From the NCBI GenBank assembly GCA_964598205.1, contig CAZRBB010000005.1, positions 5,721 through 69,720 of the forward strand: a DNA stretch of 64,000 bases, written 5' to 3'. The translations under genes and the position numbers were made by a program. This document shows, in pieces, positions 4,620 through 60,110 of the stretch (position 1 is the stretch's first letter; each line of letters opens with the position of its first letter). The DNA is from an uncultured Candidatus Saccharibacteria bacterium. GTDB taxonomy: Bacteria > Patescibacteriota > Minisyncoccia > CAIUEV01 > JAHKAQ01. Below the pieces are notes generated by a model that saw only the letters and a program-made list of their open reading frames with translations, did no database searches and was not told where the DNA came from.

Positions 4620-4715
4620 TTCCTAATTATGAATTTCTAATTTTGAATTTCGATTAAAATTTGAATTCTAAATTTTAAATTATTTCGAAACTCAAAATTA
4701 GAAATTCAAAATTAA
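4620..4715. repeat. AT-rich GAATTTCGA / ATTTCGAAACTCAAAATTAGAAATTCAAAATT motif cluster between atpE and atpB
   Basis: Contains ctaattttgaatttcgattaaaatttgaattc and ttatttcgaaactcaaaattagaaattcaaaatt, read directly. Confidence 0.7.
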
Positions 4716-5831: not shown

Positions 5832-6902
5832 TCAACCTCTCTTTTCTTTCCACCAGATCAAAAGTGGACTGGCTACAAAAATGGAAGAATAGCTACCTAA
5901 GGTAATTCCCACAATCAAGGCTAGCGCAAAATAAAAAGTACTAGCACCTCCCCAAATCAAAATCGCAAAAAGAGTTATTAATGTGGCAAAAGAAGTGTTA
6001 AGAGAACGCGTTAATGTCTCATTGATGCTTCTATCTACTAAATCCCGAAAATTATCTTCCTTTCCTGCTAAAACATTTTCCCTAATCCGATCAAAAATAA
6101 TTATAGTGTCATTGACTGAATATCCCAAAATAGTTAAAAGTGCTGCAATAAAAAATGAATTAACTTCCACTCCCCCAAATCTCCCAAGTACCGAAAAAAC
6201 TCCAACAGTGATTAAAATATCGTGCGCCAAAGCAATAATCGCCACCGTTCCATAACGAAAAGATTCATATTTATTAAAACTTCCAGAAATTCCCCGAAAA
6301 GCCCAAGCCACATAAATTAAAATAGAAATCAACACCAAGATAATTGCTGACTGGGTTTTTTGCCTTAATTCTTTTCCAACTTTAGCCCCGATCGACTGAA
6401 AATCAACCTCCTCTACTGATTCACCGGAAGTTGATTTAATTTCTTCTTGAGTATTTTCTTCTTTTGATTTTTCGGCCACTTTTTGGCGTAATTGACTTAA
6501 GACCAGTTGATGTTCTGGCTCTGTGAGTGATCTCATTTTAATCAATACTTCCCTTTTTCCCACCGGCTGAGTCGTAATTTCTCCTAAATTACCCAAAGCA
6601 GTAGGAGAAGATTTTTCCGAGTTAAGATTTTTTAATAATGGATCATTAGACAAAACTGCTTTTTCTTTTTGGGTTGCTCCCTGTGTTACTGCTCCTCCCC
6701 CACCAAGCGCTTGCTTAATTTCTACAGCCGAAAGCTCTGCTTGATTAAATTTTACTCGCAAAAGCGAACCACCGGTAAAATCAATTCCGGGTTTTAACCC
6801 CCAAAACATTAAAGAAATCAAAGAAAGAACCATTAAAGATCCAGAAATAGAAAGCCAAATTTTCCCTCTTGCAACAATCTTCATCTTTGAATTTAGAATC
6901 AA
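5832..6902 (-). CDS. secF: Protein-export membrane protein SecF
   Basis: 356 aa with an N-terminal TM, a periplasmic domain and a C-terminal 5-TM bundle typical of SecF. It lies directly downstream of secD. Confidence 0.9.
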   Translation of the reverse strand: MILNSKMKIVARGKIWLSISGSLMVLSLISLMFWGLKPGIDFTGGSLLRVKFNQAELSAVEIKQALGGGGAVTQGATQKEKAVLSNDPLLKNLNSEKSSPTALGNLGEITTQPVGKREVLIKMRSLTEPEHQLVLSQLRQKVAEKSKEENTQEEIKSTSGESVEEVDFQSIGAKVGKELRQKTQSAIILVLISILIYVAWAFRGISGSFNKYESFRYGTVAIIALAHDILITVGVFSVLGRFGGVEVNSFFIAALLTILGYSVNDTIIIFDRIRENVLAGKEDNFRDLVDRSINETLTRSLNTSFATLITLFAILIWGGASTFYFALALIVGITLGSYSSIFVASPLLIWWKEKRG

Positions 6903-6937
6903 AAATTATTTCTTCTCTAACTATCTTTACACTTTCT

Positions 6938-7100
6938 AACAGCTATGGTTTGTTTTTCCAAGGAGAGCATATCGGAAAAATTGCTCGGTTCCGGAATTTA
7001 TAATTTTTTCCAAATAAATTCCGGAAATTTTTCCGATATTCTAGCAAGATTTTTCGCCGGAAAAAATCGAGCGTCTCCTTAAAAACAAACCATAGCTGTT
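6938..7100. repeat. Perfect 20-bp inverted repeat (AACAGCTATGGTTTGTTTTT / AAAAACAAACCATAGCTGTT) enclosing an internal TTCCGGAA-rich nested palindrome
   Basis: The arms were read directly at 6938-6957 and 7081-7100. The ~123-nt interior holds a second hairpin, ttccggaatttat...ataaattccggaa. The element lies in the secD-secF intergenic region. Confidence 0.8.
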
Positions 7101-7117
7101 AAAAAGTTATTTGCTTG

Positions 7118-8827
7118 TTATTTTTTCTCATCGTCCGTAATTCGTGATTTCCTTACTAGTCCCCAAGCTAATTTTTTCCCCATGAACTGCTCCAAAAATC
7201 CTAAAATAGTTTGGGAAACAAAAATTGCCGAAAACATGGAAAAAATAATACCCACTCCTAAAGTAATGGCGAATCCCTTAACCGATCCCGTACCCATCCC
7301 CGCTAAAATAACACAGGTTATAAGAGTAGAAAAATTGCCATCCCGAATAGACGGCCAAGCTCTTTTTTCGGCATTTTTTAGCGCCGTCTTCATGTTTCTA
7401 CCTTCCCTTAACTCTTCTTTCATCCGCTCAAAAATTAGAACATTGGCATCCACTGCCATTCCCAAAGACAAAACAAATCCCGCAATTCCAGCTAAAGTTA
7501 AAGTTACTCCTAAAATTTTAAAAACCGCTACTAAAGTTACCGCATAGAACGCCAATGCCAAAACCGCTATTAATCCTGGTAAAAGATAAAAAGCAATCAT
7601 AAATCCAGAAACCAAAGCCAAACCAAAAGCACCAGCAGTAAGACTTTGCTGTAACGAAACCTTTCCTAGACTTGCACCCACCAATTCCTGGCTCAAAAGT
7701 TCAATCGGTACCGGCAACGCTCCGGAATTTAATCGCTTGGCCAAATCCTTAGCTTCTGCTAAATCCCTAGAACCAGTGATTACTGCTTGACCATCGGCAA
7801 TCACCGTTCGCACCACTGGCACAGTAACCGGCTGTCCGTCTAATAAAATAGCTACTCTCTTTTCCTGATTTCTTTCGGTGATTTCTCTAAAAAGATTTTT
7901 GCCTTCTTCGTCGAATCGCAAAGAAACTTGGGGTTCTTGCGTATTCTGATCAAAAACTACTTGCGCATCTTTTAGGTTTTTACCAGAAAGTCCCGTTGGT
8001 TTAAAAGGAAACCCTGTAGTTTCTTCTTTCTTTTCTTCGTCCACCAAAAGAAATAGAATATGACTCGTCCTTACTTCTTTCCCATCACCCTCACCCCTTT
8101 CATTGGTCTTTTTAAGAATATGATAACCAAAAGGACTCTTTACTAATTCCCGCCAAACCGAACCTTTTATAAAACGAGAATTAAAAAAAATCGTTTCTAA
8201 TTCGGGAACAAAAGCTTGTTCACCATTCTTCTTGTAAAAATCCAAATCACCGCCCGCCTCTTTGCTCCCAGGATCTTCTGAATATTTCTTAGCTAATTTG
8301 GAAAAATCTTCTCCACTTAAAGCTCTTTTTAAAACCGCTTCAGCTTCAACTTTTTTTGCTTGATTCTGCTCCTTTCTTAGTGTCTTTTCGGAATCGGTTA
8401 GGGCATAATCTTTGTCTGTTTTTTCTTCCCAAAATTCCAAAATGGGAGTCTCCCCAATCATTTTCACAGCCAAAGAGATATCTTTAGCGCCAGCCAAATC
8501 CACTGTAATTCGCTGCTCCCCGCCCGATTGTGAAGTAGTTACTTCTGGTTCAGAAATACCATAAGCATTGACTCTTCTTTCAATTACATCTCTAGCTCCG
8601 CTTAAGCTTTCTGCCACCCGATCCGAAGGAATCCGGCTCATGTCCGCCTTGTAAACCAAGTGCGCCCCTCCTTCTAAGTCTAGCCCTAGATCAATTTTTA
8701 AATCTCTTAAATACTTTCCAATATTTTTACCAAAAATAGAAAAATCCGGCATTACAGGACTAGCTATCGCCGCAAAAGCAATAAACATTAAGCTAATCAA
8801 AAAAAGTCTGGAATTTATCTTTTTCAT
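7118..8827 (-). CDS. secD: Protein translocase subunit SecD with an embedded parvulin-type PPIase-like domain in its periplasmic head
   Basis: 569 aa with SecD N- and C-terminal homology and a 6-TM bundle. The central segment ...SKEAGGDLDFYKKNGEQAFVPELETIFF...SPFGYHILKK...VRTSHILF matches the parvulin GGDLG...FGYHII signature. Confidence 0.9.
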   Translation of the reverse strand: MKKINSRLFLISLMFIAFAAIASPVMPDFSIFGKNIGKYLRDLKIDLGLDLEGGAHLVYKADMSRIPSDRVAESLSGARDVIERRVNAYGISEPEVTTSQSGGEQRITVDLAGAKDISLAVKMIGETPILEFWEEKTDKDYALTDSEKTLRKEQNQAKKVEAEAVLKRALSGEDFSKLAKKYSEDPGSKEAGGDLDFYKKNGEQAFVPELETIFFNSRFIKGSVWRELVKSPFGYHILKKTNERGEGDGKEVRTSHILFLLVDEEKKEETTGFPFKPTGLSGKNLKDAQVVFDQNTQEPQVSLRFDEEGKNLFREITERNQEKRVAILLDGQPVTVPVVRTVIADGQAVITGSRDLAEAKDLAKRLNSGALPVPIELLSQELVGASLGKVSLQQSLTAGAFGLALVSGFMIAFYLLPGLIAVLALAFYAVTLVAVFKILGVTLTLAGIAGFVLSLGMAVDANVLIFERMKEELREGRNMKTALKNAEKRAWPSIRDGNFSTLITCVILAGMGTGSVKGFAITLGVGIIFSMFSAIFVSQTILGFLEQFMGKKLAWGLVRKSRITDDEKK

Positions 8828-8886: not shown

Positions 8887-11610
8887 TTATTGTTTTTTTC
8901 CGCAACACTTCTTATATTTCTTTCCCGATCCGCAGGGACAAGGACTGTTGCGACTTACTTTTGGAGTAAAATTAGCTCCAACATTAACACTAGCCGCTTC
9001 TGCGGTATCCTTTCCGGGAACGCCCTTTAATTCTAGTTTAGAAGGAGGAGGTAGAATATTTTTTTCTTCTTCCTCTTTTCCCTTAACCATTATTTCTGTT
9101 TTAAAAAGCGCTTCTACGGAAGAAAAAAGAACACTACTAAAAAAGTTTTGGAACATTTCAAAACCATCTTTTTTGTATTCCACCAAAGGATCTCTCTGAC
9201 CATATCCGCGAAGTCCAATTCCTTCTCGTAAATGTTGCATATTATCCAAATGCTCCATCCATAAAAGATCAGAATTTTTTAGAATAATCACCCGCTCCAA
9301 ACTGCGAAAAACACTGGCGCCAAACTTCTCTTCTTTCTCTTTGTAAAGAGAAAGAACATAGTCATTAATTGTCTTTTTGATTTCTTTAATTTTTTCTTCA
9401 CCACTAAAATGCGAATCATTAAAAATCTTCTCTAACTTTTCTTCTAAATCTTCTTTGGCATTAAAAACAGCCCGACAGTTTTCTTTGATTTCCCCTAAAT
9501 TCCAGGAGCGTTCTTCTTCTCCTAGGGTATGCGCCTTAACAACTCTCCCTACTACTTCTTTGATCATACCTAAAACATCTTCCTTCTGTAATAATCCTAA
9601 AAGATTTTCCCTTCGTTTTTGGTAAACTACTTCCCGTTGGCGGTTAATTACATCGTCGTATTCCAAAACATGCTTTCTAATATCAAAGTTAAAACCTTCA
9701 ATTTTTTTCTGCGCTGATTCTATGGAACGATTTACAATTTTATTTTGAATCGGCTGGTCTTCTGGTAGCCCCAAAGCATCCATCATTTGCTTTATCTTTT
9801 CTGAACCAAACCGTTTCATTAATTCATCTTCCAAGGAAACATAGAATTGCGAACTCCCAGGATCTCCTTGCCGACCAGCACGACCACGAAGCTGATCGTC
9901 TATTCGCCGTGCTTCGTGTCGCTCCGTTCCAATAATATGTAGTCCTCCCAAAGAAGCTACGCCCTCTTCTAGCTTAATATCTGTTCCTCGACCGGCCATA
10001 TTAGTAGCCAAAGTGATTGCTCCCTTTTCTCCCGCTTTGGCAATAATTAACGCTTCTTTTTCGTGATTCTTAGCGTTTAGGATTTCGTAATCCAACCCTT
10101 CTCGCAAAAGATACTCAGCCAGTTCTTCTGATTTTTCTACCGAAATAGTTCCCACCAAAACTGGTTGACCTTTTTTATTTCTTTTTTTGATTTCCTTAGC
10201 AATTGCTTCCATTTTCCCATGCTCGCTTTTGTATATTTTGTCTGAAAAATCTTGTCTTACCATTGGCCGATTGGTGGGAATAGAAAGAACGTCTAGTTTA
10301 TAGACCTTAAAAAGTTCTTCAGCAGAAGTCATTGCCGTTCCGGTCATTCCCGCTAATTTTTTATAAAGCCGAAAATAATTCTGAAAAGTGATTGTGGCCA
10401 GTGTTCGACTTTCTTTTTGGATCGCCACTCCTTCTTTTGCTTCTAGTGCTTGATGCAACCCCTCAGAAAAACGCCGTCCAGGCATTAAGCGACCAGTAAA
10501 ATCGTCTACAATAATCACTTCTCCTTCTTGCACCACATATTGCTTGTCTCTTTTAAAAATAGCGTGCGCTTTTAATGCTTGATTCAAATGGTGTACAAAC
10601 CGCATATTCTCCGCAGCGTACATATTACTAATACCCAATTTCTTTTCGATTTTCTCCATACCGCTTTCCGAAAGAGAAACCGCCTGCATTTTTTCGTCTA
10701 AATTGTAGTCCTTTTCCGGGATTAAAATCGGCACTACCTTGGCAAACTTAAGATAAAGTTTGTTAGATTCTTCGTCTGCGGCAGAAATAATTAAAGGCGT
10801 TCGCGCCTCGTCTATTAAAATACTGTCTACTTCGTCTACAATGGCAAAATTCAAATAATCTTTTTTAAAAAAGCCTTCTTTTTTTTCATCCTTTTTTTGT
10901 CGCTTCTCTTCTTCTTCTTTTAAAAGTCCCAAGTCTCTCACTTGAACCATTTGCGCCAAATCTAAAACCATATTGTCTCGCAGGTAATCAAAGCCAAATT
11001 CATTATTAGTCCCATAAGTAATATCGGCCGCATAAGCTTCTCCGCGAGGCACTGCTCTTAAATTATCGTACTCAATACTCACCTCTTCTTGATCCGATTT
11101 AACTAAGGAGGAATATAAGTAAGCAGTATCGTGCTGAACACAACCTACCGAAAGCCCTAAAAAAGAATAAACGGCTCCCATCCAATTAGTATCCCGCCTA
11201 GCCAAGTAATCGTTCACCGTAATTATGTGCACTCCCCTTCCTTCTAGGGCGTTTAGGTAAACAGCAAAAACAGCGGCTAAAGTCTTTCCTTCACCGGTTT
11301 TCATTTCTGTGATTTTCCCCTGATGCAATCCTATTCCTCCCATAATTTGTGCATCGAATGCCCGCTGACCAATTGCCCGCTTGGCTCCTTCTCGGCAAAC
11401 AGCAAAAGCCCCTGGAAGAATTTCGTCTAGCGTCTTTCCTTTTCTTATTTGCTCCTTTAATTCAAAAGTTTTAGAACGCAGTTCGTTGTCGGAAAGCTTT
11501 ATTAAATCAGCTTCTAGTCCATTTATCCTTTCAACCAAAACTTTTATTTTCTTTATTTCTTGATTGTTGGAATCAACAAAAATATTCTGGATTTTTTTTA
11601 AAAAATTCAT
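8887..11610 (-). CDS. secA: Preprotein translocase ATPase SecA
   Basis: 907 aa with DEAD-like motor motifs and a C-terminal zinc-binding tail CPCGSGKKYKKCCGKKQ. Confidence 0.95.
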   Translation of the reverse strand: MNFLKKIQNIFVDSNNQEIKKIKVLVERINGLEADLIKLSDNELRSKTFELKEQIRKGKTLDEILPGAFAVCREGAKRAIGQRAFDAQIMGGIGLHQGKITEMKTGEGKTLAAVFAVYLNALEGRGVHIITVNDYLARRDTNWMGAVYSFLGLSVGCVQHDTAYLYSSLVKSDQEEVSIEYDNLRAVPRGEAYAADITYGTNNEFGFDYLRDNMVLDLAQMVQVRDLGLLKEEEEKRQKKDEKKEGFFKKDYLNFAIVDEVDSILIDEARTPLIISAADEESNKLYLKFAKVVPILIPEKDYNLDEKMQAVSLSESGMEKIEKKLGISNMYAAENMRFVHHLNQALKAHAIFKRDKQYVVQEGEVIIVDDFTGRLMPGRRFSEGLHQALEAKEGVAIQKESRTLATITFQNYFRLYKKLAGMTGTAMTSAEELFKVYKLDVLSIPTNRPMVRQDFSDKIYKSEHGKMEAIAKEIKKRNKKGQPVLVGTISVEKSEELAEYLLREGLDYEILNAKNHEKEALIIAKAGEKGAITLATNMAGRGTDIKLEEGVASLGGLHIIGTERHEARRIDDQLRGRAGRQGDPGSSQFYVSLEDELMKRFGSEKIKQMMDALGLPEDQPIQNKIVNRSIESAQKKIEGFNFDIRKHVLEYDDVINRQREVVYQKRRENLLGLLQKEDVLGMIKEVVGRVVKAHTLGEEERSWNLGEIKENCRAVFNAKEDLEEKLEKIFNDSHFSGEEKIKEIKKTINDYVLSLYKEKEEKFGASVFRSLERVIILKNSDLLWMEHLDNMQHLREGIGLRGYGQRDPLVEYKKDGFEMFQNFFSSVLFSSVEALFKTEIMVKGKEEEEKNILPPPSKLELKGVPGKDTAEAASVNVGANFTPKVSRNSPCPCGSGKKYKKCCGKKQ

Positions 11611-11971: not shown

Positions 11972-12078
11972 GGCGGTTTCTTAATATTTATTTCTATAGT
12001 TCTTAGGACTTACGCATTTGGTATAGCAGACCCTAATTTATTCTACTTGTTTTTCTTGGTAAAGCAATTCATCCAATT

Positions 12079-12400
12079 TTGAATTTCGAATCAACAGTTT
12101 TGATTCATAGCTTTTCTGAACCAATGTTCTTCTCCCAGTTCGTTCGTCCTCGACCAGGACTCGCTCCGCCTTGTTCCTGTTTTACTTTACCTAAAAAGCT
12201 TAAGACTTTAGAGACTAGAAGAATAACTGTTTCAAGCAGAATTGAGTTGTTTCTGCTTGAAACAGTTATTCTTCTAGTCTCTTTCTGTTGTGGGAACAAG
12301 GAGCCTCCTCTAAGAACATTGTTTCAGAAAAGCTTGATTCATAATTCTTTATTCAAAATTATTTCGAAATTCAAAATTAGTCATTCGTAATTAAATAATG
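12079..12400. repeat. Large palindromic intergenic element copy A (~320 bp) with a central perfect 31-bp-stem hairpin
   Basis: The hairpin gagactagaagaataactgtttcaagcagaa-ttgagttgtt-ttctgcttgaaacagttattcttctagtctc lies at ~12221-12292. The flanking arms are mutually reverse-complementary. A second copy is at 18700-19035. The ORFs 12079..12390 and 12105..12299 on this element are probably spurious. Confidence 0.8.
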
Positions 12401-12431
12401 TATACTTGCTTGGTTTTTATTAAGAAAAATC

Positions 12432-15248
12432 ATGAAAAAAATCGTTATTCAAGGAGCCAGAGAAAATAACTTAAAAAATATCAGTTTAGAGTTGCCTCGA
12501 GGCAAGTTTATTGCTTTTACGGGTGTTTCCGGTTCCGGCAAATCCACTCTAGCCTTAGACACCATTTTTGCCGAAGGTCAAAGAAGATACCTAGAAAGTC
12601 TTTCTAGTTACGCTCGGCAATTTTTAGGGCAAATGGACAAGCCAGATGTAGATTTAATAGACGGCCTTTCTCCCGCCATTTCTATTAGCCAAAAAACTGC
12701 CGGTGGCAATCCTCGCTCTACCGTTGGTACCGTAACCGAAATCTACGATTATCTGCGACTTCTTTTTGCCAAAGCAGGAACACCCCATTGCCTTTTTTGC
12801 GGAAAAGAAATCAAAAAAATCTCTAGCGACGAAATGCTCTGTGAAATCCTAGATCAATTCCCAGAAAAAGAAACCTTAGAAATTTACGCCCCAATCGTCC
12901 GTGGTCGCAAAGGAGAATACCAAGGACTCTTAGAAAATCTTTACCGAGAAGGTTACGAAGAAGCACTTGTTAATGGTCGCGTCTTTAAACTTTCCGCTCA
13001 TCGATTTGCCAACCTGGACCGTCATAGCCGTCATCGCATAGAAGTTTTGGTAGACAGACTAGAACTTGAACCCGGTAACTTAGAACGGCTAAACGAAAAT
13101 GTTGAGCAAGCACTAAAGCTAGCAGGAGGAACTGTTACTATTAAAAACAAAGAAAAAACAGCAACCTTTAATCGCAATCAAATCTGCCCCGATTGTAACT
13201 ACAGTTCGCCAGAAATTGAACCCCGCTCTTTCTCCTTCAACAGTCCATACGGCGCCTGCCCCGACTGTGACGGATTAGGAAGAAAACTAGAACTTTCCGA
13301 AAAATTAATTATTCCCGATTACACAAAAACTATTGGCCAAGGCGGTCTTTTGCCTTGGAGCTACCGAACAGGTAATTGGATTGCTTCTATTATTAACGCC
13401 GTGACCCAAGAATTAAAAATTTCTACTCACGATCGCTTAAAAGACATTCCCGCTCACAAGATGGAACGCCTATTAAAAGGCGACGAAGAACCAATCTTAA
13501 TCAAAGTTCGCCTTCATAGTCACCATCAACGAATTTGGCGCTTTCGTTTTTCTGGATTGCTAAATTATTTAGAAAAACGACACCTAGAAACCGATTCCGA
13601 AAAAGTAAGAAAAGAAATAGAAAAATACATGATTCGCCGAGTTTGCCCCGCCTGCCAAGGAGCCCGACTTAAAAAAGAAAGTCTCTTGGTTAAAATTGGT
13701 GGAAAAAACATTAGCCAAGTAACTGAATTTTCCATTCAAGAAGCCGTTAAGTTTTTTAGTGATTTAAAATTAACCAAAACTCAAGCAGCTATTGCCAAGA
13801 GTATTAATAAAGAAATTCAAAACCGACTTTCTTTCTTAGAAAATGTTGGCTTGTCTTACCTTTCACTAAGCCGCGCTTCTAATACCCTTTCCGGCGGCGA
13901 ATCTCAACGCATCCGCTTAGCCAGTCAAATCGGTGCTGGACTAACCGGCGTACTTTATATCTTAGACGAGCCGTCTATTGGTCTTCATGCCAAAGACAAT
14001 CAAAAATTACTCACAACTCTTCACCATTTACGCGATCTAGAAAATACCGTCATTGTAATTGAACACGACGAAGAAACTATTCTAAGTGCCGACTGGCTCA
14101 CAGATATTGGTCCAGAAGCCGGAAAAAAAGGTGGCAATATCGTGGTTAACGCCCCTCTAAAAAAAGCACTAAAAAATTCTGATTCGCTTACCGTCCGCTA
14201 TTTGACCGGTGAAGAAAAAATTGCCGTTCCCGCCACTCGTCGTCGAAAAGGAAAAAATATTTTAAAAGTAGTAGAAGCCGAAGAACATAACTTAAGAAAG
14301 ATTAGTCCAGAAATCCCGCTTGGTTCGTTTACGGTTGTTACTGGAGTTTCTGGTTCCGGCAAGTCTACCTTGGTCAACGAAATTATTTACAAAACACTTG
14401 CCCGCCATTTTTACCGATCCTTAGAACAGCCGGGGCGATGCAAAGAAATCAAAGGATTGCACCATTTAAAAAAAGTAATCAATGTTGATCAATCTCCTAT
14501 TGGTCGCACTCCCCGATCCAACCCGGCCACTTACACCAAGGTCTTTACCCCTATTCGGGAACTTTTTGCCCAAACCAAAGATGCCCGCCAAAAAGGTTTT
14601 GGACCAGGAAGGTTTAGTTTTAATGTTAACGGCGGTCGTTGTGAAAATTGCAAAGGAGAAGGGTTTCTTAAAGTATCTATGCAGTTTTTGCCAGATGTTT
14701 ACCTACCCTGCGATATTTGCCAGGGACAACGCTTTAAAAAGGAAACTCTAAAAATCCATTACCGAGGAAAAAACATTGCCGAAGTTCTAGGAATGACTGT
14801 AACCGAAGCTTTTGAATTTTTTCACGACATCCCTCAAATTGCCGATATTCTAAAAGTAATCGACGAAGTTGGTCTGGGATATATTCAATTAGGACAAGCA
14901 GCCACCACTCTTTCTGGAGGCGAAGCCCAGCGAGTTAAGCTAGCTTCGGAGCTGGCTAAAAGAAGTGTTGGTCAAACACTCTACATTTTAGACGAACCGA
15001 CTACGGGTCTTCACTTTGAAGATATTAAAAAATTACTTTCAGTTTTACAAAAACTAACCGATCAAAACAACACCGTCTTGGTTATTGAGCATAACTTAGA
15101 TGTAATTAAATCTGCCGATTGGATTATTGATCTTGGTCCCGAAGGAGGCAAGCAAGGCGGAAAGATCATTGCCCAAGGATCGCCAGAAGAAATCATTAAG
15201 TATCCCGAAAGTGCTACCGGCCAATTCTTAAAAGAAAAATTAGTTTAA
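12432..15248 (+). CDS. uvrA: Excinuclease ABC subunit A
   Basis: 938 aa with two ABC ATPase modules (GVSGSGKST twice), LSGGE signatures and zinc-finger Cys pairs. Confidence 0.95.
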   Translation: MKKIVIQGARENNLKNISLELPRGKFIAFTGVSGSGKSTLALDTIFAEGQRRYLESLSSYARQFLGQMDKPDVDLIDGLSPAISISQKTAGGNPRSTVGTVTEIYDYLRLLFAKAGTPHCLFCGKEIKKISSDEMLCEILDQFPEKETLEIYAPIVRGRKGEYQGLLENLYREGYEEALVNGRVFKLSAHRFANLDRHSRHRIEVLVDRLELEPGNLERLNENVEQALKLAGGTVTIKNKEKTATFNRNQICPDCNYSSPEIEPRSFSFNSPYGACPDCDGLGRKLELSEKLIIPDYTKTIGQGGLLPWSYRTGNWIASIINAVTQELKISTHDRLKDIPAHKMERLLKGDEEPILIKVRLHSHHQRIWRFRFSGLLNYLEKRHLETDSEKVRKEIEKYMIRRVCPACQGARLKKESLLVKIGGKNISQVTEFSIQEAVKFFSDLKLTKTQAAIAKSINKEIQNRLSFLENVGLSYLSLSRASNTLSGGESQRIRLASQIGAGLTGVLYILDEPSIGLHAKDNQKLLTTLHHLRDLENTVIVIEHDEETILSADWLTDIGPEAGKKGGNIVVNAPLKKALKNSDSLTVRYLTGEEKIAVPATRRRKGKNILKVVEAEEHNLRKISPEIPLGSFTVVTGVSGSGKSTLVNEIIYKTLARHFYRSLEQPGRCKEIKGLHHLKKVINVDQSPIGRTPRSNPATYTKVFTPIRELFAQTKDARQKGFGPGRFSFNVNGGRCENCKGEGFLKVSMQFLPDVYLPCDICQGQRFKKETLKIHYRGKNIAEVLGMTVTEAFEFFHDIPQIADILKVIDEVGLGYIQLGQAATTLSGGEAQRVKLASELAKRSVGQTLYILDEPTTGLHFEDIKKLLSVLQKLTDQNNTVLVIEHNLDVIKSADWIIDLGPEGGKQGGKIIAQGSPEEIIKYPESATGQFLKEKLV

Positions 15249-15250
15249 AA

Positions 15251-15505
15251 TCTAAATCTAAAACCCCAAAGTCAATATTCTCTTTTAGACAATAGCTCCC
15301 AAGAGACTCGCTTGGGCAGACAAGGCTCTGAGTCTGCCTACGCGAGTCTCTTGGGAGCTATTGAAGCTTAAAATAATATTTGAGGACTAAGGATATATCT
15401 GTTCAGAAGACTAAGAGCCTTGTCTTCTGAACAGATATATCCTTAGTCCTCTTTCCATAATAAAAGCATCTCAAAAGAATATTGGTTTTTGGGGTTTTAG
15501 ATTAT
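15251..15505. repeat. Nested palindromic element: an outer inverted repeat enclosing two perfect hairpins
   Basis: The outer arms are aatctaaaaccccaaagtcaatattctctttt (15255-15286) and aaaagaatattggtttttggggttttagatta (15473-15505). Inner hairpin 1 spans 15294-15359 with an 18-bp stem (agctcccaagagactcgc). Inner hairpin 2 spans 15382-15451 with a perfect 30-bp stem (gaggactaaggatatatctgttcagaagac). Confidence 0.8.
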
Positions 15506-15568
15506 TGCGCTTTTTTGCTATAATTTACCCGCAAGAATTAATCGTCGATTAAAATAAAAACACAGTTA

Positions 15569-15943
15569 ATGTTTCATTTTTTCTCTTTTTATCTTTCTTC
15601 TGTTTCCGAGACTGCTTCTTCTTGGATTGTCTCTTTTTTGTTCTTTTGGCTTGTAGAAGCTCCTCGCCGTTTTTGGGAAAAAGCAATTGCCATGTCCTTG
15701 GTTTTTGAAAAGTCTTGGGCCACCTATATTACTTTTAGAAATTTATTCGCCCCTCTTTATCAAGATTACTCAATAATCGGTCGAATAATTGGTCCATTTT
15801 TTAGATTAGGACGCATTGTCATTGGCATCTTGATCCATTTATTGCTCCTTTTATTTTGGCTTTTTTCGTTCCTTATTTTTTGCTTGGTGCTTTGGGGATC
15901 GCCGATTTTCTTTTTGATCAATCTTTTTATCTGGAATCAATAA
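15569..15943 (+). CDS. Hypothetical small polytopic membrane protein
   Basis: 124 aa, very hydrophobic with about 3-4 predicted TM segments. It lies immediately upstream of, and abuts, the Clp-like gene. Confidence 0.4.
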   Translation: MFHFFSFYLSSVSETASSWIVSFLFFWLVEAPRRFWEKAIAMSLVFEKSWATYITFRNLFAPLYQDYSIIGRIIGPFFRLGRIVIGILIHLLLLLFWLFSFLIFCLVLWGSPIFFLINLFIWNQ

Positions 15944-18676
15944 ATGAGTATTGAAAAAACAAAAAATAAAACAAAAGAGTTTTCTTGTTCTTCTTGCCAA
16001 GGAACCGGTCGTGCTGGTCAAACCGAAGGAACTTGCCCCAATTGTAATGGCAAAGGTTTTTACCAAAAAATCCGCGGATTGGTTCTTTTTTGGGGAAAAA
16101 AACAAAAAGGAATCCCTAGTGTAATTCAAAAATCATTAGAAAAAACTGCCGAAACAATAGAAATTATTATTTTTGTTTTAGGAACACTGTTTATTTTCTT
16201 GGGAGCAATTAATCTTTGGGACAATCTGAAAGCTCACGACAGTATTCTCTTTGATTTGAATCTATTTTTTGACATTTTTTTTGCAGGCTACGCCACCGCC
16301 CCTCTCTGGTTGGGAATATTTCTTCTTTTGGTTCTTTATTTTCATCGGTTCGTTTTTAGAAAGCCCAATCCTATTAACGCCAAAAATCCTTTTTACCGTT
16401 ATCTTTTAGCTGAAAACCCATTCTCCCAAGACAAAAAACAAACACCAAAAGCACTAGATATTTCCACTTCCGCTTCTAAAAATATTATTAAAATCCTCGC
16501 CGATTCATTAAATCTAGCTTTTAGGCGTCAACAAAAACCAGAACTTACTCATTTGCTTTTTGCCCTTATTCAAAAAAAAGAAATCCAGTCCGTCTTTTAT
16601 AAATTAGAAATTCCACCATTAGAATTCATTGAAGAGGCCTTAAAAAAATCTGCCGGATTCACACCGGAAAATTTTTTTCTACTTCCTAAAGAATATAAAA
16701 AAATTCTTTTAAGATCTTTCTGGGAAGCAGTAAGAAACGAAGACGAGACCATTCTCCCGGAACATCTTTTGGCGGCACTAGTCGATGAAAAAGACTTCAA
16801 ATTGGTCTTAAACCGCTTTGGGGTCACTGTAGAAGATTTTCGTAATGTTATTTTTTGGATCAAGTATCAAAAAAAGAGAACCGAAGGATTCCTAGAAGAA
16901 GACTCTTTTCGTCGACCACCGCATAGAATAATGAACAAAAGCTGGAGTGCCGTAATGACCAAAACCTTAGACGCTTTTTCCACGGATATCACCGACTACG
17001 CCCGAGCAGGATTGCTTTTCCCAATTGCCAACCGAGTAGAAGAAATTAGATCCTTAATTCAAATTCTAGAAAGAAGGAGTCGCAACAATGCCCTTCTAAT
17101 TGGAGAAGAAGGCAGCGGCAGAGAAACATTGGTCAGAGGCTTGGCCCAGAAAGTAGTTCGAGGAAAAATATCTGGATCACTTTTTGACAAACGAATCGTC
17201 AAGCTAAACTTGGCCAGCCTTGGTAGCGGTTTAGGATCTGATGGTGGTCTTCTTAAAAATAGGATCGAAGTTATTATGAGAGAAATAATCCACACCCAGA
17301 ATGTTATCCTTTATATTCCAGAAATTCACGAACTAGCCAAGGTAACTAGTTTTTCTTCTTTCGATATTCTTAGCTACCTAGCGCCGCTTTTCTCTCAAAG
17401 CATTATCCAAGTGATTGGTTCTACTTCCCAAGAATACTATCACGACTACTTAGAACCACGAGGAGAATTTGCTCAAATGTTCGACATTATTAAAATACCA
17501 GAACTCTCCTTGGACGCATCTCTTAAAGCAGTTTCTCTACGCGTACCACTCTTGGAAAGACAAGAAGGAGTTTCTATTTCTTACCGTGCCGCCGAAGAAG
17601 CCGTGAAAAAATCTGCTAGATACATTACCGACCGACTCCTTCCTCAAAAAGCCATAGACATTTTAGCCGAGGCGGTAGTTAGAAGTAAAAACATTAAAGG
17701 ACAAGGCTTTGTTACAGAACAAGAAGTCCAAGAAGTTTTTTCCGAAAAGACCGGTATTCCACTAACCGCCATGAAAGAAAACGAAGCCGATGAACTTTTG
17801 CTTTTAGAAGAAAAAATAAGAAAACAAGTAATCGGTCAAGAAAGAGCAGTCTCCGATGTTTCGGCCGCTATTCGCCGTGCCCGCGTAAGGATCGGAGAAA
17901 TAGAACGACCCATTGCCGTCTTTTTATTTGTTGGACCAACAGGTGTTGGTAAAACGGAATTAGCCAAAGCACTTGCCGAAATTTATTTCGGCGCCAAAGA
18001 AAAAATGATTCGCCTAGACATGAGCGAATTCGCCACTCCCTACGACATTGAAAGACTACTGGGCAATACTGGCGGTTCCGTCTCTGGACTCTTAACCGAA
18101 CAAGTTCGCAAAAGCCCCTTCTCCTTAGTCCTTTTAGATGAATTTGAAAAAGCTTCTTCTAATATTTGGGACCTCTTTTTACAAATCTTCGATGACGGCC
18201 GAATCACAGACGGTATGGGAAGAGTGGTCAACTTTACCAACACCATTATTATTGCCACTTCCAATGTTGGCAGTCGGCAAATTCTAGAAAACTTAGCTCA
18301 AGGAGGATCGCAAGAATCTATTCAAGAATTAGTTCAAAAAGAACTCCTCACCGTTTTCCGACCAGAATTTATTAATCGCTTTGACGATGTAGTAACTTTT
18401 AATCCGCTTTCCAAAGACAATATTAAAGAAGTTTCTCTTTTGGAAATTAAAAACTTAAACCAGCGACTTGGCGAAGAACAAGGATTAACCGTTGTCTTGG
18501 CCGAAGATGCACTAGACCATTTAGCAGAAATCGGCTATAGTCCCAAGTTCGGTGCCCGCTTCTTAAAACGCTTAATGAGAGAGAAAATAGAAGACGCTCT
18601 GGTAGTAGGAATCCTAAAGAATCAATACCCGCGGGGCAGCGTCGTTACAATTACGAAAGAACAGCTAGTAAAGTAG
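15944..18676 (+). CDS. Membrane-anchored Clp/Hsp100-family AAA+ protein with an N-terminal DnaJ-type CxxCxGxG zinc finger, a degenerate D1 domain and an intact D2 domain
   Basis: The N-terminus carries CSSCQGTGRAGQTEGTCPNCNGKGF, followed by two hydrophobic TM segments and a Clp_N-like repeat. The D1 domain reads LLIGEEGSGRETLV, where Walker A K/T are replaced, and ILYIPEIHEL, where the Walker B Asp is Pro. The D2 domain has GPTGVGKTELAKALA, LLDEFEKA and NTIIIATSN. No M-domain or IGF loop was seen. Confidence 0.8.
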   Translation: MSIEKTKNKTKEFSCSSCQGTGRAGQTEGTCPNCNGKGFYQKIRGLVLFWGKKQKGIPSVIQKSLEKTAETIEIIIFVLGTLFIFLGAINLWDNLKAHDSILFDLNLFFDIFFAGYATAPLWLGIFLLLVLYFHRFVFRKPNPINAKNPFYRYLLAENPFSQDKKQTPKALDISTSASKNIIKILADSLNLAFRRQQKPELTHLLFALIQKKEIQSVFYKLEIPPLEFIEEALKKSAGFTPENFFLLPKEYKKILLRSFWEAVRNEDETILPEHLLAALVDEKDFKLVLNRFGVTVEDFRNVIFWIKYQKKRTEGFLEEDSFRRPPHRIMNKSWSAVMTKTLDAFSTDITDYARAGLLFPIANRVEEIRSLIQILERRSRNNALLIGEEGSGRETLVRGLAQKVVRGKISGSLFDKRIVKLNLASLGSGLGSDGGLLKNRIEVIMREIIHTQNVILYIPEIHELAKVTSFSSFDILSYLAPLFSQSIIQVIGSTSQEYYHDYLEPRGEFAQMFDIIKIPELSLDASLKAVSLRVPLLERQEGVSISYRAAEEAVKKSARYITDRLLPQKAIDILAEAVVRSKNIKGQGFVTEQEVQEVFSEKTGIPLTAMKENEADELLLLEEKIRKQVIGQERAVSDVSAAIRRARVRIGEIERPIAVFLFVGPTGVGKTELAKALAEIYFGAKEKMIRLDMSEFATPYDIERLLGNTGGSVSGLLTEQVRKSPFSLVLLDEFEKASSNIWDLFLQIFDDGRITDGMGRVVNFTNTIIIATSNVGSRQILENLAQGGSQESIQELVQKELLTVFRPEFINRFDDVVTFNPLSKDNIKEVSLLEIKNLNQRLGEEQGLTVVLAEDALDHLAEIGYSPKFGARFLKRLMREKIEDALVVGILKNQYPRGSVVTITKEQLVK

Positions 18677-18699
18677 CTTCACTTAATTATTTTTAGACA

Positions 18700-19035
18700 A
18701 TTTCAAAAATTATCTCTACATTCTTTCCCGAACTAATGTTCTTAGAGGAGGCTCCTTGTTCCCGCTAACAGAAAGAGATTAGAGGAATAACTGTTTCAAA
18801 CAGAAACAACTCAATTCTGTTTGAAACAGTTATTCCTCTAATCTCTAAAACCTTAAGCTTTTTAGGCAGAGTAAAACAGGAACAAGGTGGAGCGAGGCCC
18901 GGTCGAGGACGAGCGTACTCCGAGAAGGACATTGGTTCGGGAAAGAATGCTTAATTCAAAAAATTCCTTAATTAATACGCTTAAGCTTTTTCAAAATTAA
19001 TCATTTGAATTTTAATCAAAATTAGTAATTCAAAA
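18700..19035. repeat. Large palindromic intergenic element copy B, the reverse-orientation homolog of 12079-12400
   Basis: Identity to the reverse complement of copy A is about 85-90%. It includes the hairpin gagattagaggaataactgtttcaaacagaa-acaactcaat-ttctgtttgaaacagttattcctctaatctc, which carries compensatory stem substitutions relative to copy A. Confidence 0.8.
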
Positions 19036-19039
19036 TTTA

Positions 19040-20098
19040 ATGAAGGTCCTTTCCCTAGAAACTTCCTGCGACGAAACTTCTTTTGCCTTAGGAGAAATCA
19101 ATAAAAGAAGCGGGCAATTGCTCACCTCTACCACTTTGTCGCAAACCGAAACCCATCGCCCTTTTGGCGGTGTTGTTCCCAATCTTACCGCCAGAGAACA
19201 TCTTAAAAATTTTAAACCACTACTCAACAAAACTCTTAAAAAAGCTGGAATTGAACTTTCCCAGATTGATCTTTTTTCCGTCGCTGCCGGACCAGGGCTA
19301 ATTCCAGCACTCTTAGTTGGGGTAAGTATTGCCAAGGCTTTTTCTTTTTTCTACCAAAAACCACTCTTAGGGTTAAACCACTTAGAAGCCCATCTTTATT
19401 CCGGTTGTTTAGAAAAATCAGGCCGAATTAATCCGGAACTAAAATTTCCCGCTATTGCTCTAATTGTTTCCGGTGGCCACACTCAACTTGTTCTTTTGAC
19501 CGATTTTTTTAATTATCAAATATTAGGAGAAACCATTGACGATGCCTGTGGCGAAGCCTTTGACAAAGCCGCCAGAATTTTAAAGCTAGGTTACCCAGGT
19601 GGCGCAGCAGTCGCCATAGCCGCCGAAAAAGGAGACCCTCATCGCTTTAACTTTCCCCGACCCATGATTCAAAACCCCAATCTTAATTTTAGTTTTTCTG
19701 GCTTAAAAACCGCCCTTCTGTATCAAGCCCAAAAGGAATTTTCTCTGAAAAAACACAATCCCCAAACTGTTTACGATCTGGCAGCTTCTTTTTCCGCCGC
19801 CGCCCTAGAAGTTTTGATTAAAAAAACCGAACGCGCTAGTCAAAAATTCAAACCAAAAACCTTAATCTTAGGAGGAGGCGTTTCTGCTAATAAAAACCTA
19901 AGAAAAGACTTTCAAGAATTGGGGAGCAAACTTGGTTGTAACCTAAAAATCCCCCTTCTTTCGTTTGCCCAAGACAATGCCGCCATGCAATTGCCACTTG
20001 TCTTCTTTCTAAATCAAAAAGATAAAATCAAAAAACTAGAAACAGACTTTTCAAAGATAGAAGCGAAAGCTAATATGGAGTTGGTTAGCTTAGTCTAA
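19040..20098 (+). CDS. tsaD: tRNA N6-adenosine threonylcarbamoyltransferase TsaD (Kae1/YgjD family)
   Basis: 352 aa, MKVLSLETSCDETSFAL...GVVPNLTAREH... together with the HLEAH motif. Confidence 0.9.
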   Translation: MKVLSLETSCDETSFALGEINKRSGQLLTSTTLSQTETHRPFGGVVPNLTAREHLKNFKPLLNKTLKKAGIELSQIDLFSVAAGPGLIPALLVGVSIAKAFSFFYQKPLLGLNHLEAHLYSGCLEKSGRINPELKFPAIALIVSGGHTQLVLLTDFFNYQILGETIDDACGEAFDKAARILKLGYPGGAAVAIAAEKGDPHRFNFPRPMIQNPNLNFSFSGLKTALLYQAQKEFSLKKHNPQTVYDLAASFSAAALEVLIKKTERASQKFKPKTLILGGGVSANKNLRKDFQELGSKLGCNLKIPLLSFAQDNAAMQLPLVFFLNQKDKIKKLETDFSKIEAKANMELVSLV

Positions 20099-22637: not shown

Positions 22638-22680
22638 ATTACAAATTTTGATTTCCGAATTTCGATTAAAATTAGAAAAT

Positions 22681-22790
22681 CAAAATTCAAAACAATTTAT
22701 AAATTATAATTTCAAGCTTTAGTCAAAATTCAAAACAATTTATAAATTATAATTTCAAGCTTTAATCAAAATTCAAAATTCGTAATTCAA
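22681..22790. repeat. 43-bp AT-rich tandem repeat (~2.5 copies)
   Basis: The unit caaaattcaaaacaatttataaattataatttcaagcttta(g/a)t occurs at 22681-22723 and 22724-22766, followed by a partial third copy. Confidence 0.85.
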
Positions 22791-22810
22791 AATTAAGGTT
22801 AAGCCCCCTT

Positions 22811-38884: not shown

Positions 38885-39000
38885 GAATAATTACGAATTA
38901 TGAATTTTGAATTTCGATTAAAATTAGAAATCTGAATTTAGAAATGATTTTTAAATTCTAATTTATAGTTTATTTCAAAATTCAAAATTCATAATTCGTA
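38885..39000. repeat. AT-rich GAATTTCGA / ATTTCAAAATTCAAAATT palindromic motif cluster
   Basis: Contains ttttgaatttcgattaaaattagaaat and ttatttcaaaattcaaaattcataattcgtaattc. It belongs to the same family as 4620-4715, 12340-12400, 18950-19035, 22640-22800 and 43840-43995. Confidence 0.7.
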
Positions 39001-43839: not shown

Positions 43840-43995
43840 TCTAATTACTAGTTTTGAATTTCGAAATAAATTTTAATAGTTAATTTTAAAACAGTTCGAT
43901 TTTACTAAATGAAACTTTTCCGAAGCTTGTTTTAAAATTTAAATTTCTAATTTATTTCGAAATTCAAAATTCAAAATTCAAAATTATCCAATTCC
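43840..43995. repeat. AT-rich GAATTTCGAAAT / ATTTCGAAATTCAAAATTCAAAATTCAAAATT motif cluster
   Basis: Contains ctagttttgaatttcgaaataaatttt and ttatttcgaaattcaaaattcaaaattcaaaatt, read directly. Confidence 0.7.
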
Positions 43996-56781: not shown

Positions 56782-58488
56782 TCATTTCTGTTTTTCTTTA
56801 TTCACTTTTTTCTCTTTTTTATTTTTAAATTTATCAACAATTATTTTCTTTACCATTATTAACCAAGGAAAAAATAAAGTCACCCCCAAAAGCGTCCAAA
56901 AAACTCTCCTATTAAACTGGTCACGGAGACAGACCACTCCTTCAATTTTTTTACAATCATAAATCTCTTTCATTGTCTTTTTTGATTCTCCCTTACTATT
57001 GTAAGAACTTACTTCTAATTCTAAATAATCAAGGTCTTTTGGAGCTTTAATCTTATTCCTCCATCCCTTTATCACTCCGTCTATTTTCCCCACATAAACA
57101 GCTCTTCCAATTTCTCCTCCTTCTTTGTCTTTTAATAAAAGTTCTATTCTTGAAACATTATTTTCATTGGCTAGTGATTGTTTTTTTTGAATATCCTGAA
57201 AAAATTCATATAAACTTAAATCAAAAAAACCCGTAAAAAGATCCACCGTTTCTCCTTTTCTTATTGGAAATTTATTAATACCAGTACCAATTAAACATGG
57301 CACATCTCCTTTATACTCAAGAAAGATCGGAAAATAAACAATATATTTCCTCCCTTCGCCTTCAATTAAAACCTGGAGAGAGGAGCCACCAAAAGTATTG
57401 TCCGCTCCATAAAATCCCTTCTCCTTAAAAGTTTTTTGAGCCCTCTCAATATAATCGTCCAAATTGAACTCATGAGAAACTTCTTCTGTTGACCTTGGTT
57501 TTACTGCAAAAGAACGCCTTTCGGCAATTTCGTTCAAATCCTTATCCAAGCCCGCAAATCTTCCGCCAAAAAAATTAATCAAATCATAACGAACATTAAA
57601 ATTCTTTGCTTCTTGTGAATTATTAAACATTTTAAAACGAACTGTTACCTGAGAATAGCTAATAATATTCTGGATATTTTTGATAAAAAATCTATTCTCT
57701 TTATTTATCATTTCAAAATCAAAACCCCCATCCTTGGAAACCAAGCCAAAACTTTTATCACCCTTTAATACGGAAAAAATAAAAGAACCTCTAGAAAGTT
57801 TTGGGAGCCACTGACGAGGATTAGCATAAAGCATGGAACCCTCAAGTCTCCGCGAAACACTACTATCAACAGCTCCTACATCTAAGGAATAATTTCCTGG
57901 GGGAATATTTTCTGGAATAGTGTATAAAAAAGAAATCTTCTTTTCCCTTCCCCCTGTCAAATCAAAAGAATTGGGAGTTATTAGAAATAAATCATTCAAC
58001 AATTCAGTAGGATAATAATTTGCACCTAGTGTCTTTAATGATCCATGAATTTTTATATTAACTAACGGATAGCTTTCTGGATTTTTTAATAAAATATTCA
58101 AAATAATCTTCTCCCCACCTTTTAGCTCTTTATTGTTTTTATCACCATTCTCTTTTACTGCAGAAACTAGCTCAAGAACAGATTGCTGATTGGATTTTTG
58201 ATACCCCGCTCTATTTACCAATTCTCCAAGATAAAAAGGTTCACCAATAGACCCTTCCCTTACATAATTCCCTCCCAAACCAAAAGAAGGATCTTTTAGC
58301 AAAAAAGCATCAGGGGCCAGTCGTTCATTTTTTATAATTTCGTTCTTGTGATTACGAAAATACAGAACGAGAAAAACGATTAGTATCCCAATTGAAAGAA
58401 CAGTAAGTACTTTCTGCCAAGCAAGTATTTTTTTTACTTTTTTGTCTTTATTCATAAGACCGCTTAATAAAAAGTATCTAAGGGACAT
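56782..58488 (-). CDS. Paralog 1 of a three-member family of bitopic (TM at both ends) surface/extracytoplasmic proteins
   Basis: 568 aa. The likely true start is at M12 (MNKDKK, ~58455), by alignment with the paralog N-termini. It has an N-terminal TM, a large hydrophilic body sharing blocks with 58498..60054 and 61315..63000, a conserved C-terminal YDCKKIEGVVCLRDQFNRRVFW, and a second TM. Confidence 0.6.
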   Translation of the reverse strand: MSLRYFLLSGLMNKDKKVKKILAWQKVLTVLSIGILIVFLVLYFRNHKNEIIKNERLAPDAFLLKDPSFGLGGNYVREGSIGEPFYLGELVNRAGYQKSNQQSVLELVSAVKENGDKNNKELKGGEKIILNILLKNPESYPLVNIKIHGSLKTLGANYYPTELLNDLFLITPNSFDLTGGREKKISFLYTIPENIPPGNYSLDVGAVDSSVSRRLEGSMLYANPRQWLPKLSRGSFIFSVLKGDKSFGLVSKDGGFDFEMINKENRFFIKNIQNIISYSQVTVRFKMFNNSQEAKNFNVRYDLINFFGGRFAGLDKDLNEIAERRSFAVKPRSTEEVSHEFNLDDYIERAQKTFKEKGFYGADNTFGGSSLQVLIEGEGRKYIVYFPIFLEYKGDVPCLIGTGINKFPIRKGETVDLFTGFFDLSLYEFFQDIQKKQSLANENNVSRIELLLKDKEGGEIGRAVYVGKIDGVIKGWRNKIKAPKDLDYLELEVSSYNSKGESKKTMKEIYDCKKIEGVVCLRDQFNRRVFWTLLGVTLFFPWLIMVKKIIVDKFKNKKEKKVNKEKQK

Positions 58489-58497
58489 TCTTGTTGA

Positions 58498-60054: not shown

Positions 60055-60110
60055 AAAAATCTAATAATCTATTGCTAAAGAAGCTCTAAAAAAATTATTT
60101 ATGTTTTTCT

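Follow-up and report, generated by a model that had tools for sequence, protein, structure and literature searches.

The uvrA–clpB region of the 64,000-nucleotide stretch of contig CAZRBB010000005.1 analysed here (hereafter, the window) is flanked by two long palindromic sequences in opposite orientation, here called copies A and B. This arrangement raises the question of whether the two copies act together on the genes that lie between them, as an earlier note on this DNA had proposed, or whether they have nothing to do with those genes. The answer that we favour is that A and B form, with a third copy (C) found outside the window, a small dispersed family of non-coding repeats of ~150-230 bp with nested hairpins, and that they are probably miniature non-autonomous mobile elements of the type of MITEs (miniature inverted-repeat transposable elements), ERIC, or Correia repeats. 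This reading is based on the dispersal of non-coding intergenic copies in both orientations, the target-like duplication that flanks A, the modular nature of the central hairpin, the absence of the copies from syntenic relatives, and the restriction of the family to one lineage.

The similarity between A and B was delimited first by a repeat search, which detected one pair of inverted arms at 12111-12289 and 18767-18945 (179 nt, 89% complementary) and a second pair at 12292-12332 and 18723-18763 (41 nt, 90%), and by BLAST, which aligned both copies with 88.3% identity over 223 nt (E=4e-78). The opposite orientation and the ~85-90% identity claimed beforehand were thus reproduced. In contrast, the size of ~320 bp was not, since the limits of homology given by the alignment and by the covariance-model hits are 12110/12333 for A and 18719/18949 for B. 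Copy A (12110-12333, plus strand, taken as the canonical orientation) therefore measures 224 bp, and copy B (18719-18949, minus strand, inverted with respect to A) measures 231 bp.

Both copies share a nested architecture, in which a long hairpin is contained in an inner 9-bp stem (CCTTGTTCC/GGAACAAGG), and this one in an outer stem of 23-32 bp. In copy A, the outer stem is formed by 12110-12131/12312-12333 and is followed by a small hairpin (~12146-12160), the inner stem (12169-12177/12293-12301), and the central hairpin (12210-12282), whose perfect 32-bp stem (12210-12241/12251-12282) is closed by the 9-nt loop TTGAGTTGT. The outer stem of copy B is formed by 18719-18750/18918-18949, and its central hairpin (18774-18846) has again a perfect 32-bp stem (18774-18805/18815-18846) and a 9-nt loop. 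The perfect hairpin previously described is therefore real and the whole copy folds around it, but its stem has 32 bp instead of 31 bp, and the elements are nested structures rather than simple palindromes, because their 5' side carries ~70 nt of additional, partly GC-rich sequence. The outer arms constitute terminal inverted repeats in A, B, and C (23-32 nt, 84-96% complementary), and the ends of a matching partner element would correspond to GCTTTTCTGAACCAATGTTCTT. The minimum free energy (MFE) of the whole A and B copies, folded as RNA, ranges from -110 to -117 kcal/mol, with z values of about -12 to -13.5 with respect to dinucleotide shuffles, on either strand.

These repeats are non-coding. 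A reading frame that spans A without a stop (103 codons) is reduced to 55 codons in B, the frame on the opposite strand is stopped after 8 codons in B, and no open reading frame (ORF) resembling the translation of the element was found among 5.8 billion clustered proteins.

The third copy came to light when the contig was extended by means of the first gene of the window. Copy C (L092:12939-13093) lies 1.27 kb outside the window, beyond position 1, in the spacer that separates atpC from a 147-aa ORF. Its ~155 bp show 81-85% identity to A and B but do not include the central 32-bp hairpin module, and a covariance model of A, B, and C scores it at 177 bits. This model, run over 232 kb (the window, ~19 kb of extensions, and the loci of six relatives), detected only A, B, and C. 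The copy number of the family is thus at least three in ~83 kb of this genome, at unrelated intergenic sites, and zero in ~125 kb from the six relatives. All three copies are intergenic and they occur in either orientation: A and C are in sense with respect to the downstream gene, and B is in antisense. The distance between B or C and the stop codon that precedes it is 30-45 nt. The gene found ~0.5 kb away from C, at L092:13582-16089, encodes a protein of 835 aa that contains DUF8128 and faintly matches TrwB/TraG (type IV coupling protein-like), and it has no established link to the repeats.

The existence of copy C changes the interpretation of the locus. Copies A and B do flank uvrA (12432-15248, plus strand), a 124-aa ORF, and the gene of a ClpB-like ATPase (15944-18676, plus strand), as it had been described, but since the third copy lies elsewhere, their placement on either side of uvrA–clpB is coincidental. 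The earlier note had reserved the label of duplicated promoter region for the case that the element occurred only at these two sites, and it does not.

The gene context of the window allows a comparison with its relatives. The UvrA homologues place the window in Candidatus Moranbacteria, within the Patescibacteria or candidate phyla radiation (CPR), the nearest sequenced relatives having ~70% UvrA identity. The local gene order is secF(-), [X], secD(-), secA(-), hpf/S30AE(-), [A], uvrA(+), [M], the 124-aa ORF(+), clpB-like(+), [B], tsaD(+), and glmS, where M and X are two further palindromic elements described below. The relative L030 (GCA_043816685.1) shows the same order, i.e., secD–secF, secA–hpf / uvrA–121 aa–clpB–(145 aa)–tsaD–glmS–cofD, and its 121-aa protein is orthologous to the 124-aa protein of the window (54% identity). 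Its intergenic gaps are 4 bp for secD–secF, 154 bp for hpf–uvrA, and 67 bp for uvrA–121 aa, compared with 215, 460, and 320 bp here. These gaps leave no room for the elements, and the sites of A, M, B, and X are not occupied. The possibility that the B region is a relic of the 145-aa gene found between clpB and tsaD in L030 was discarded, as they have no similarity.

This comparison bears on the proposal that the block is the remnant of a composite transposon, or that the copies are a duplicated promoter region. Inverted repeats flanking a gene block and AT-rich promoter-like motifs adjoining both copies are what would be expected in these cases. Nevertheless, the bracketed genes are core housekeeping genes whose synteny is conserved across the boundaries, hpf–uvrA–small ORF–clpB–tsaD–glmS–cofD having the same order and orientation in L030 without the elements; the repeats encode nothing, there is no transposase among the genes of the window, and copy C is located elsewhere. 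On the promoter side, the AT-rich motif is a separate, window-wide sequence, the homology between the copies ends at the structured core, the orientation of the repeat with respect to the downstream gene differs between A and C on one side and B on the other, and the predicted promoters fall outside the cores. Taken together, we regard both proposals as hardly credible.

The AT-rich motif deserves a separate description, because it had been considered the end of each element. The sequence TTCGAAATTCAAAATT has 19 matches in the window with up to 2 mismatches, for 0.7 expected, which are intergenic and nearly always arranged as inverted pairs; the pair sites are at 4.6 kb, 12.1/12.4 kb, 22.7 kb, 38.9 kb, and 43.9 kb. 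The members of the pair around copy A are at 12075-12090 (minus strand) and 12363-12378 (plus strand), and a variant with 2 mismatches is found next to copy B at 19022-19037 (plus strand). The assertion that each element ends in the AT-rich ATTTCGAAATTCAAAATT motif immediately upstream of a start codon has thus to be corrected in two respects: the motif lies outside the repeat, and it abuts only the tsaD start, where it is a two-mismatch variant directly upstream of the ATG, while it is 54 nt upstream of the uvrA ATG.

The position of A within its motif pair is relevant for the origin of this copy. A is directly abutted by two copies of the 10-bp direct repeat TTGATTCATA, at 12100-12109 on the left and 12334-12343 on the right (both on the plus strand), that constitute a putative target-site duplication; these two are the only exact occurrences of TTGATTCATA in the 64-kb window. 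If A and one copy of the 10-bp repeat are removed, the element-free junction reads ...CAGTTTTGATTCATAATTC... and the two motif members become separated by 38 nt, the other pairs of the window being ~29-90 nt apart. Copy A appears to have arisen by insertion into an otherwise typical AT-rich motif pair. In this sense, the suspicion of mobile DNA that had been raised for this locus was partly right, given the 10-bp repeat of A, the at least three dispersed copies, and the sites that are unoccupied in a syntenic relative, even if a composite transposon was not. All the contigs of the same population carry the copies.

The same duplication is informative about the suggestion that A and B are recombination substrates that invert the uvrA–clpB block, either as a programmed switch or as a structural polymorphism. 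Inverted copies of ~225 bp with 88-89% identity, separated by 6.4 kb, could in principle recombine. However, a single exchange between A and B would part the two halves of the 10-bp repeat, which is intact on both sides of A. Moreover, the longest exact block shared by A and B in the alignment has 29 nt, a length unfavourable for homologous recombination; genes of an invertase or recombinase are lacking in the vicinity; the orientation of the block is the same as in the relatives L030 and L028; and a new orientation of uvrA and clpB would bring no obvious gain. At the assembly level, one and the same arrangement was present in all the assemblies retrieved (the JGI 3300044987 contig, the JGI 3300044984 contig L003, and Logan contigs). 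These observations make an inversion very improbable.

The distribution of the family was further explored in large sequence collections. The pattern CCTTGTTCCTG-N(95-125)-GGGAACAAGG gave 10 matches in 185,579 GTDB representative genomes, a set that does not contain the source genome; all of them belong to unrelated phyla and none was related by BLAST, and roughly 8 matches are expected by chance according to a rough estimate. The hairpin pattern ACTGTTTCAA-N(19-23)-TTGAAACAGT gave 61 matches, none of them related, in a JGI metagenome collection to which the source samples (3300044987 and others) do not belong. These two scans exclude only exact patterns in a related context within the genomes and samples scanned, and they give no copy count for the source genome. 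In the viral contigs of IMG/VR, six pattern scans (directed to A/B, to the block conserved in all three copies, to M, and to X) returned nothing or chance matches without a related fold. The repeat family looks specific to this Candidatus Moranbacteria lineage.

The three copies are divergent enough to analyse how their fold has been maintained, as the pairwise differences among A, B, and C amount to 16-24% when the central hairpin is left out. RNAalifold predicted 48 consensus pairs for the three sequences, 10 of them changed on both sides. The fraction of pair cells occupied by standard pairs was 95.1%, in contrast to 89.6 +/- 1.7% in partner shuffles (0/500 reached the observed value), and when the partners were slid by 1-3 columns only 38-54% of the cells were paired, with 0-2 compensated pairs. 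The central hairpins of A and B differ in three base pairs, all of them compensated, so that both are still paired in 32/32 positions, whereas a back-of-envelope calculation of neutral decay predicts ~3 mismatches per hairpin at ~5% divergence per lineage. Even the outermost two pairs co-vary, being GC...GC in A, AT...AT in C, and TC...GA in B. The strength of the compensatory evolution of this family is unusually clear. The compensatory changes, the fold being equally good on both strands, and the similar conservation of unpaired and paired columns, taken together, indicate that the constraint acts on a folded single strand, and these data do not separate RNA from DNA.

Such a constraint is also what would be expected from the main rival explanation, i.e., that the copies are a family of functional structured RNAs, either small RNA genes or cis-acting structures of 5' or 3' untranslated regions, with a fold under RNA selection and a dispersal caused by duplication. 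For a set of just three sequences the covariation is strong, and the folds are predicted to be extremely stable. There are conserved unpaired blocks such as CCTCGACCNGGNCTCGCTCC, CCTAAAAAGCTT, and GAGCCTCCTC, and the beginning of B, C, M, and X lies in every case 6-45 nt downstream of a stop codon, so that they should be within read-through transcripts. Nevertheless, both strands fold equally well, with no preference for one of them, and the orientation with respect to the flanking genes is inconsistent (B antisense, A and C sense). No promoter-like or terminator-like signals were found inside the cores. No Rfam 15 family corresponds to the repeat, since only two tRNAs in the window reach the gathering threshold and, at E values up to 10, only generic miRNA-precursor-like hairpins appear, with 20-40 bits for cut-offs of 64-140. 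In addition, the repeats are absent from syntenic relatives and hence do not regulate uvrA, tsaD, or atp in a conserved manner; copy C does without the central 32-bp module; the pairs of the stems are nearly all of the Watson-Crick type; and the 10-bp duplication flanking A would be left unexplained. We consider, therefore, that a structured RNA family is unlikely, although it is the alternative that has to be taken most seriously.

The covariation could also be a by-product, if the repeats were DNA palindromes whose symmetry is maintained by template switching or by gene conversion within the molecule, with no functional selection. The almost perfect Watson-Crick arms (32/32 in both hairpins despite 3 differences), the equally good folding of both strands, and the presence of several unrelated perfect palindromes in the same genome region and in relatives are in agreement with this mechanism. 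But conversion between the outer arms would be hampered by their length of just 23-32 bp and by the 100-180 bp of asymmetric sequence that lie between them, and compensated changes are also found in the 5-bp small hairpin and in the 9-bp inner stem. Gene conversion would account for the upkeep of the fold and not for the dispersal of the copies, and in that respect it complements the mobile-element reading; as an explanation in its own right, we find it improbable.

Several observations weigh against considering A, B, and C as mobile elements. Only A has a recognisable flanking direct repeat, B and C being devoid of it. Pfam scans and gene tables of the window and its ~19 kb extensions revealed no gene with a transposase, integrase, invertase, or reverse-transcriptase domain, and no autonomous partner with matching ends was found in the same region. 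The relative L030 is distant (~70% UvrA identity), and its unoccupied sites show absence and not a recent insertion. A compensated variation of the terminal bases is unusual for terminal repeats bound by a transposase, and fits a structural constraint on RNA or single-stranded DNA (ssDNA) equally well or better. Finally, the unpaired columns are as invariant as the paired ones (0.68 vs 0.69), which could mean a sequence-specific function. Even so, a mobile-element origin is the explanation to which we would assign the greater probability.

A possible mechanism for such elements would be as follows. Their mobility or maintenance would depend on a folded single strand, which could be ssDNA exposed in transposition or replication, or the RNA product of transcriptional read-through, and the enzyme involved would act in trans, encoded by an element or by the host. 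The co-varying termini and internal stems suggest that the factor that propagates or preserves the repeats would recognise shape over a fixed duplex sequence. Because B, C, M, and X start so close to the stop codons, and X lies inside the secD–secF pair, the read-through transcripts would carry very stable hairpins. By analogy with REP, ERIC, and Correia sequences, these hairpins would probably serve, as a side effect, as 3'-end, processing, or stability structures.

MITE-like palindromic repeats are known in several bacteria, such as ERIC/IRU and YPAL in enterobacteria, Correia in Neisseria, RUP in Streptococcus pneumoniae, and RPEs in Rickettsia. The repeats described here resemble these families in being non-coding, multi-copy, mainly intergenic sequences of 100-250 bp that are found in either orientation, with terminal inverted repeats that fold the whole unit into a long hairpin in read-through transcripts, with a flanking target duplication at some copies, here a putative one at A, and with a frequent location just after stop codons or inside operons. 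They differ from them in that no sequence similarity was recovered from the collections searched; in that the putative duplication has 10 bp, while a TA dinucleotide is typical of Correia, ERIC, and RUP; in their nested structure, with a perfect 32-bp hairpin module that can be absent; in their terminal bases, which co-vary here and are fixed there; and in that no partner insertion sequence is known for A, B, and C, whose host is a CPR bacterium with a reduced genome. On the reading that we favour, the family is new and lineage-restricted, but it belongs to a known kind of element, the MITE-like structured intergenic repeats, and is not a new kind of system. We have found little literature on repeats in CPR/Patescibacteria genomes.

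Other known systems share some features with the repeats. The REP/BIME sequences associated with RAYTs (IS200/IS605-like Y1 transposases) also have a hairpin kept by compensatory changes and are intergenic and often located 3' of genes, a likeness that suggests the recognition of a folded single strand over duplex sequence. However, REPs are clustered single hairpins of 20-40 nt, typically accompanied by a RAYT gene, whereas A, B, and C are solitary and have 150-230 bp; no Y1 transposase was seen in the window; and the IS200/IS605-type insertion occurs without target duplication, while A has one of 10 bp. The msr-msd non-coding RNA of retrons is similar in that its two ends pair into an outer stem, within which a 5' part bearing a small hairpin precedes a single long hairpin, but no reverse transcriptase gene is adjacent to the copies (their neighbours are hpf, uvrA, clpB, tsaD, and atpC) or present in the window, the three copies are dispersed, one of them lacks the long hairpin, and there is no Rfam match. 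Both retron and REP/RAYT identities were thus rejected, as no partner gene is present. The TIGR stem-loop arrays are palindromic hairpin units of CPR genomes with variable sequence and conserved stems, found in CPR bacteria and phages as tandem units beside a Tas gene with a Nop domain; they have box C/D motifs, and their large loops contain dual spacers (PMC12045711). The units described here are, in contrast, solitary and dispersed, have loops of 9-10 nt, and have no tas-like gene nearby, and this identity was rejected on comparison with that work (PMC12045711). Integron attC sites, 6S RNA, and bridge or omega RNAs were set aside on general grounds, without a dedicated test, since their architecture does not fit, Rfam gives no match, and the Pfam scans revealed neither a recombinase nor a TnpB-like gene.

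Copies A and B are not the only structured sequences of the region. A sliding-window fold scan of the 64 kb, corrected for GC content, gave four extreme outliers, which are X, A, M, and B; an AT-rich palindrome near 38.8-39.0 kb, beside a tRNA, is the one further strong outlier, all other windows listed being weaker. Element M (15254-15503) begins 6 nt after the uvrA stop codon and has the most stable predicted structure of the window (MFE -149 kcal/mol, z -20.9), composed of an outer stem (~15254-15284/15473-15503) and two hairpins at 15290-15363 (32 bp, 94%) and 15382-15451 (30 bp, 100%). The 10-nt loops of these hairpins (15322-15331 and 15412-15421) contain the perfectly complementary 8-mers AAGGCTCT and AGAGCCTT (15322-15329 and 15414-15421), and the tips of both hairpins (AGAC-loop-GTCT) repeat one another in inverted form. 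The predicted structure would thus allow a loop-loop (kissing) interaction. M also carries AAGCTTAA just before the second hairpin, and a strong promoter-like site (TTTAGA-17-TATAAT with an upstream TG, 15496-15524) overlaps its 3' end.

Element X (6931-7107, 177 bp) is located between secD (7118-8827, minus strand) and secF (5832-6902, minus strand), and is formed by a 27-bp outer stem with nested inner stems (fold z -10.6). Window position 7003, in the centre of X, is the end of a Logan contig. According to BLAST, the covariance model, and a shuffle test, neither M nor X is demonstrably homologous to A and B. The second hairpin of M compared with the A/B hairpin gave a full-length local score above that of the shuffles, but the comparison of half hairpins was not significant (66/1000 shuffles), and the homology of M to A and B, judged from these alignments, is unproven.

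Palindromes are also present in the Moranbacteria relatives. On a 1.2-Mb contig of L028, a 150-bp palindromic element (9827-9976), in which two hairpins accompany a perfect 30-bp outer stem, reaches to 24 nt from uvrA on its upstream side; a palindromic element of L029 (7297-7542) has 55-nt arms at 98%; and L101 contains a perfect palindrome with two overlapping 26-nt arms (19053-19096). The palindromes of these three relatives are unrelated to the elements of the window. Structured palindromic insertions seem to recur in the intergenic DNA of Moranbacteria, with their own sequences in each lineage.

The repeats have also consequences for the assembly of these genomes. Their sequence is present in independent assemblies, and copy B was identical in a second JGI sample (3300044984, contig L003, which spans clpB–B–tsaD), while k-mer assemblies break inside the copies. 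The Logan unitig L099 ends at 12253, inside the hairpin of copy A just 3' of the loop. Logan contigs of two independent runs break inside B (18892; L002 and L004) and inside C (L092:12991; L093 and L094), at nearly the same position of the element, around CGACCGGG/CCTCGC, away from the hairpin centre. Since B and C have only a 22-mer in common at this position, the breaks are a hint that those samples contain additional copies or variants, with 30-mers or longer in common with B and with C. The 12-mer AAAAAGCTTAAG, otherwise found only inside A and B, has a third exact copy at 18980-18991, 30 nt outside B and oriented like the one inside B, which may be a fragment of another element.

Regarding the AT-rich motif, the window sites extend over 4625-4713, 12075-12090/12363-12378, 19022-19037, 22644-22794, 38896-38996, and 43850-43985, and in the flanking DNA of the same genome it was found at L092:12347-12450, 16102-16196, and 17496-17581, and at L096:7026-7144. 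It has 7-nt-periodic variants such as TTCAAAATTCAAAATT, is often located between divergent genes or just upstream of start codons, and was not seen in the hpf–uvrA intergenic regions of L030 and L028. This motif may be a lineage-specific promoter or UP-type signal, or the binding site of a global regulator. The tsaD ATG (19040) directly follows the motif (...TAATTCAAAATTTAATG) and has no recognisable Shine-Dalgarno sequence; this start may be leaderless or Shine-Dalgarno-independent. In another part of the window (56782-63000, and L096:10001-16231) there are four tandem paralogous genes that encode proteins of ~520-570 aa with no significant Pfam domain and have a mutual DNA identity of ~80-83%; over 56782-63000, the window shares 99.5-99.7% identity with a second strain (JGI 3300045131 and 3300044991), which has indels.

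The genomes of CPR/Patescibacteria are small and streamlined, and this window contains one multi-copy repeat family and two unrelated nested palindromes within 12 kb. The presence of this family and of the two further palindromes suggests that MITE-like structured repeats are active, or have recently been so, in at least one Moranbacteria lineage. A more far-reaching interpretation would be that A, B, and C, perhaps with M and X, are an undescribed class of structure-selected modules in CPR bacteria, i.e., functional nested long-hairpin RNAs or ssDNAs instead of selfish MITE-like DNA. We think that this is rather doubtful, but if it were true, such modules might work as RNase III-type processing or insulation modules, as decoys, or as guide-like RNAs, and M as a kissing complex. 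The annotation of uvrA and clpB is not affected by the repeats; judging from their location, the elements found immediately after stop codons and inside secD–secF probably shape the ends of the mRNAs. On the practical side, perfect hairpins break k-mer assemblies at reproducible positions, leading to the fragmentation of metagenome-assembled genomes, and these breaks could pass for strain variation. Finally, its compensatory evolution makes this family a compact test case to distinguish the constraint imposed by an ssDNA transposition intermediate from that imposed by an RNA.

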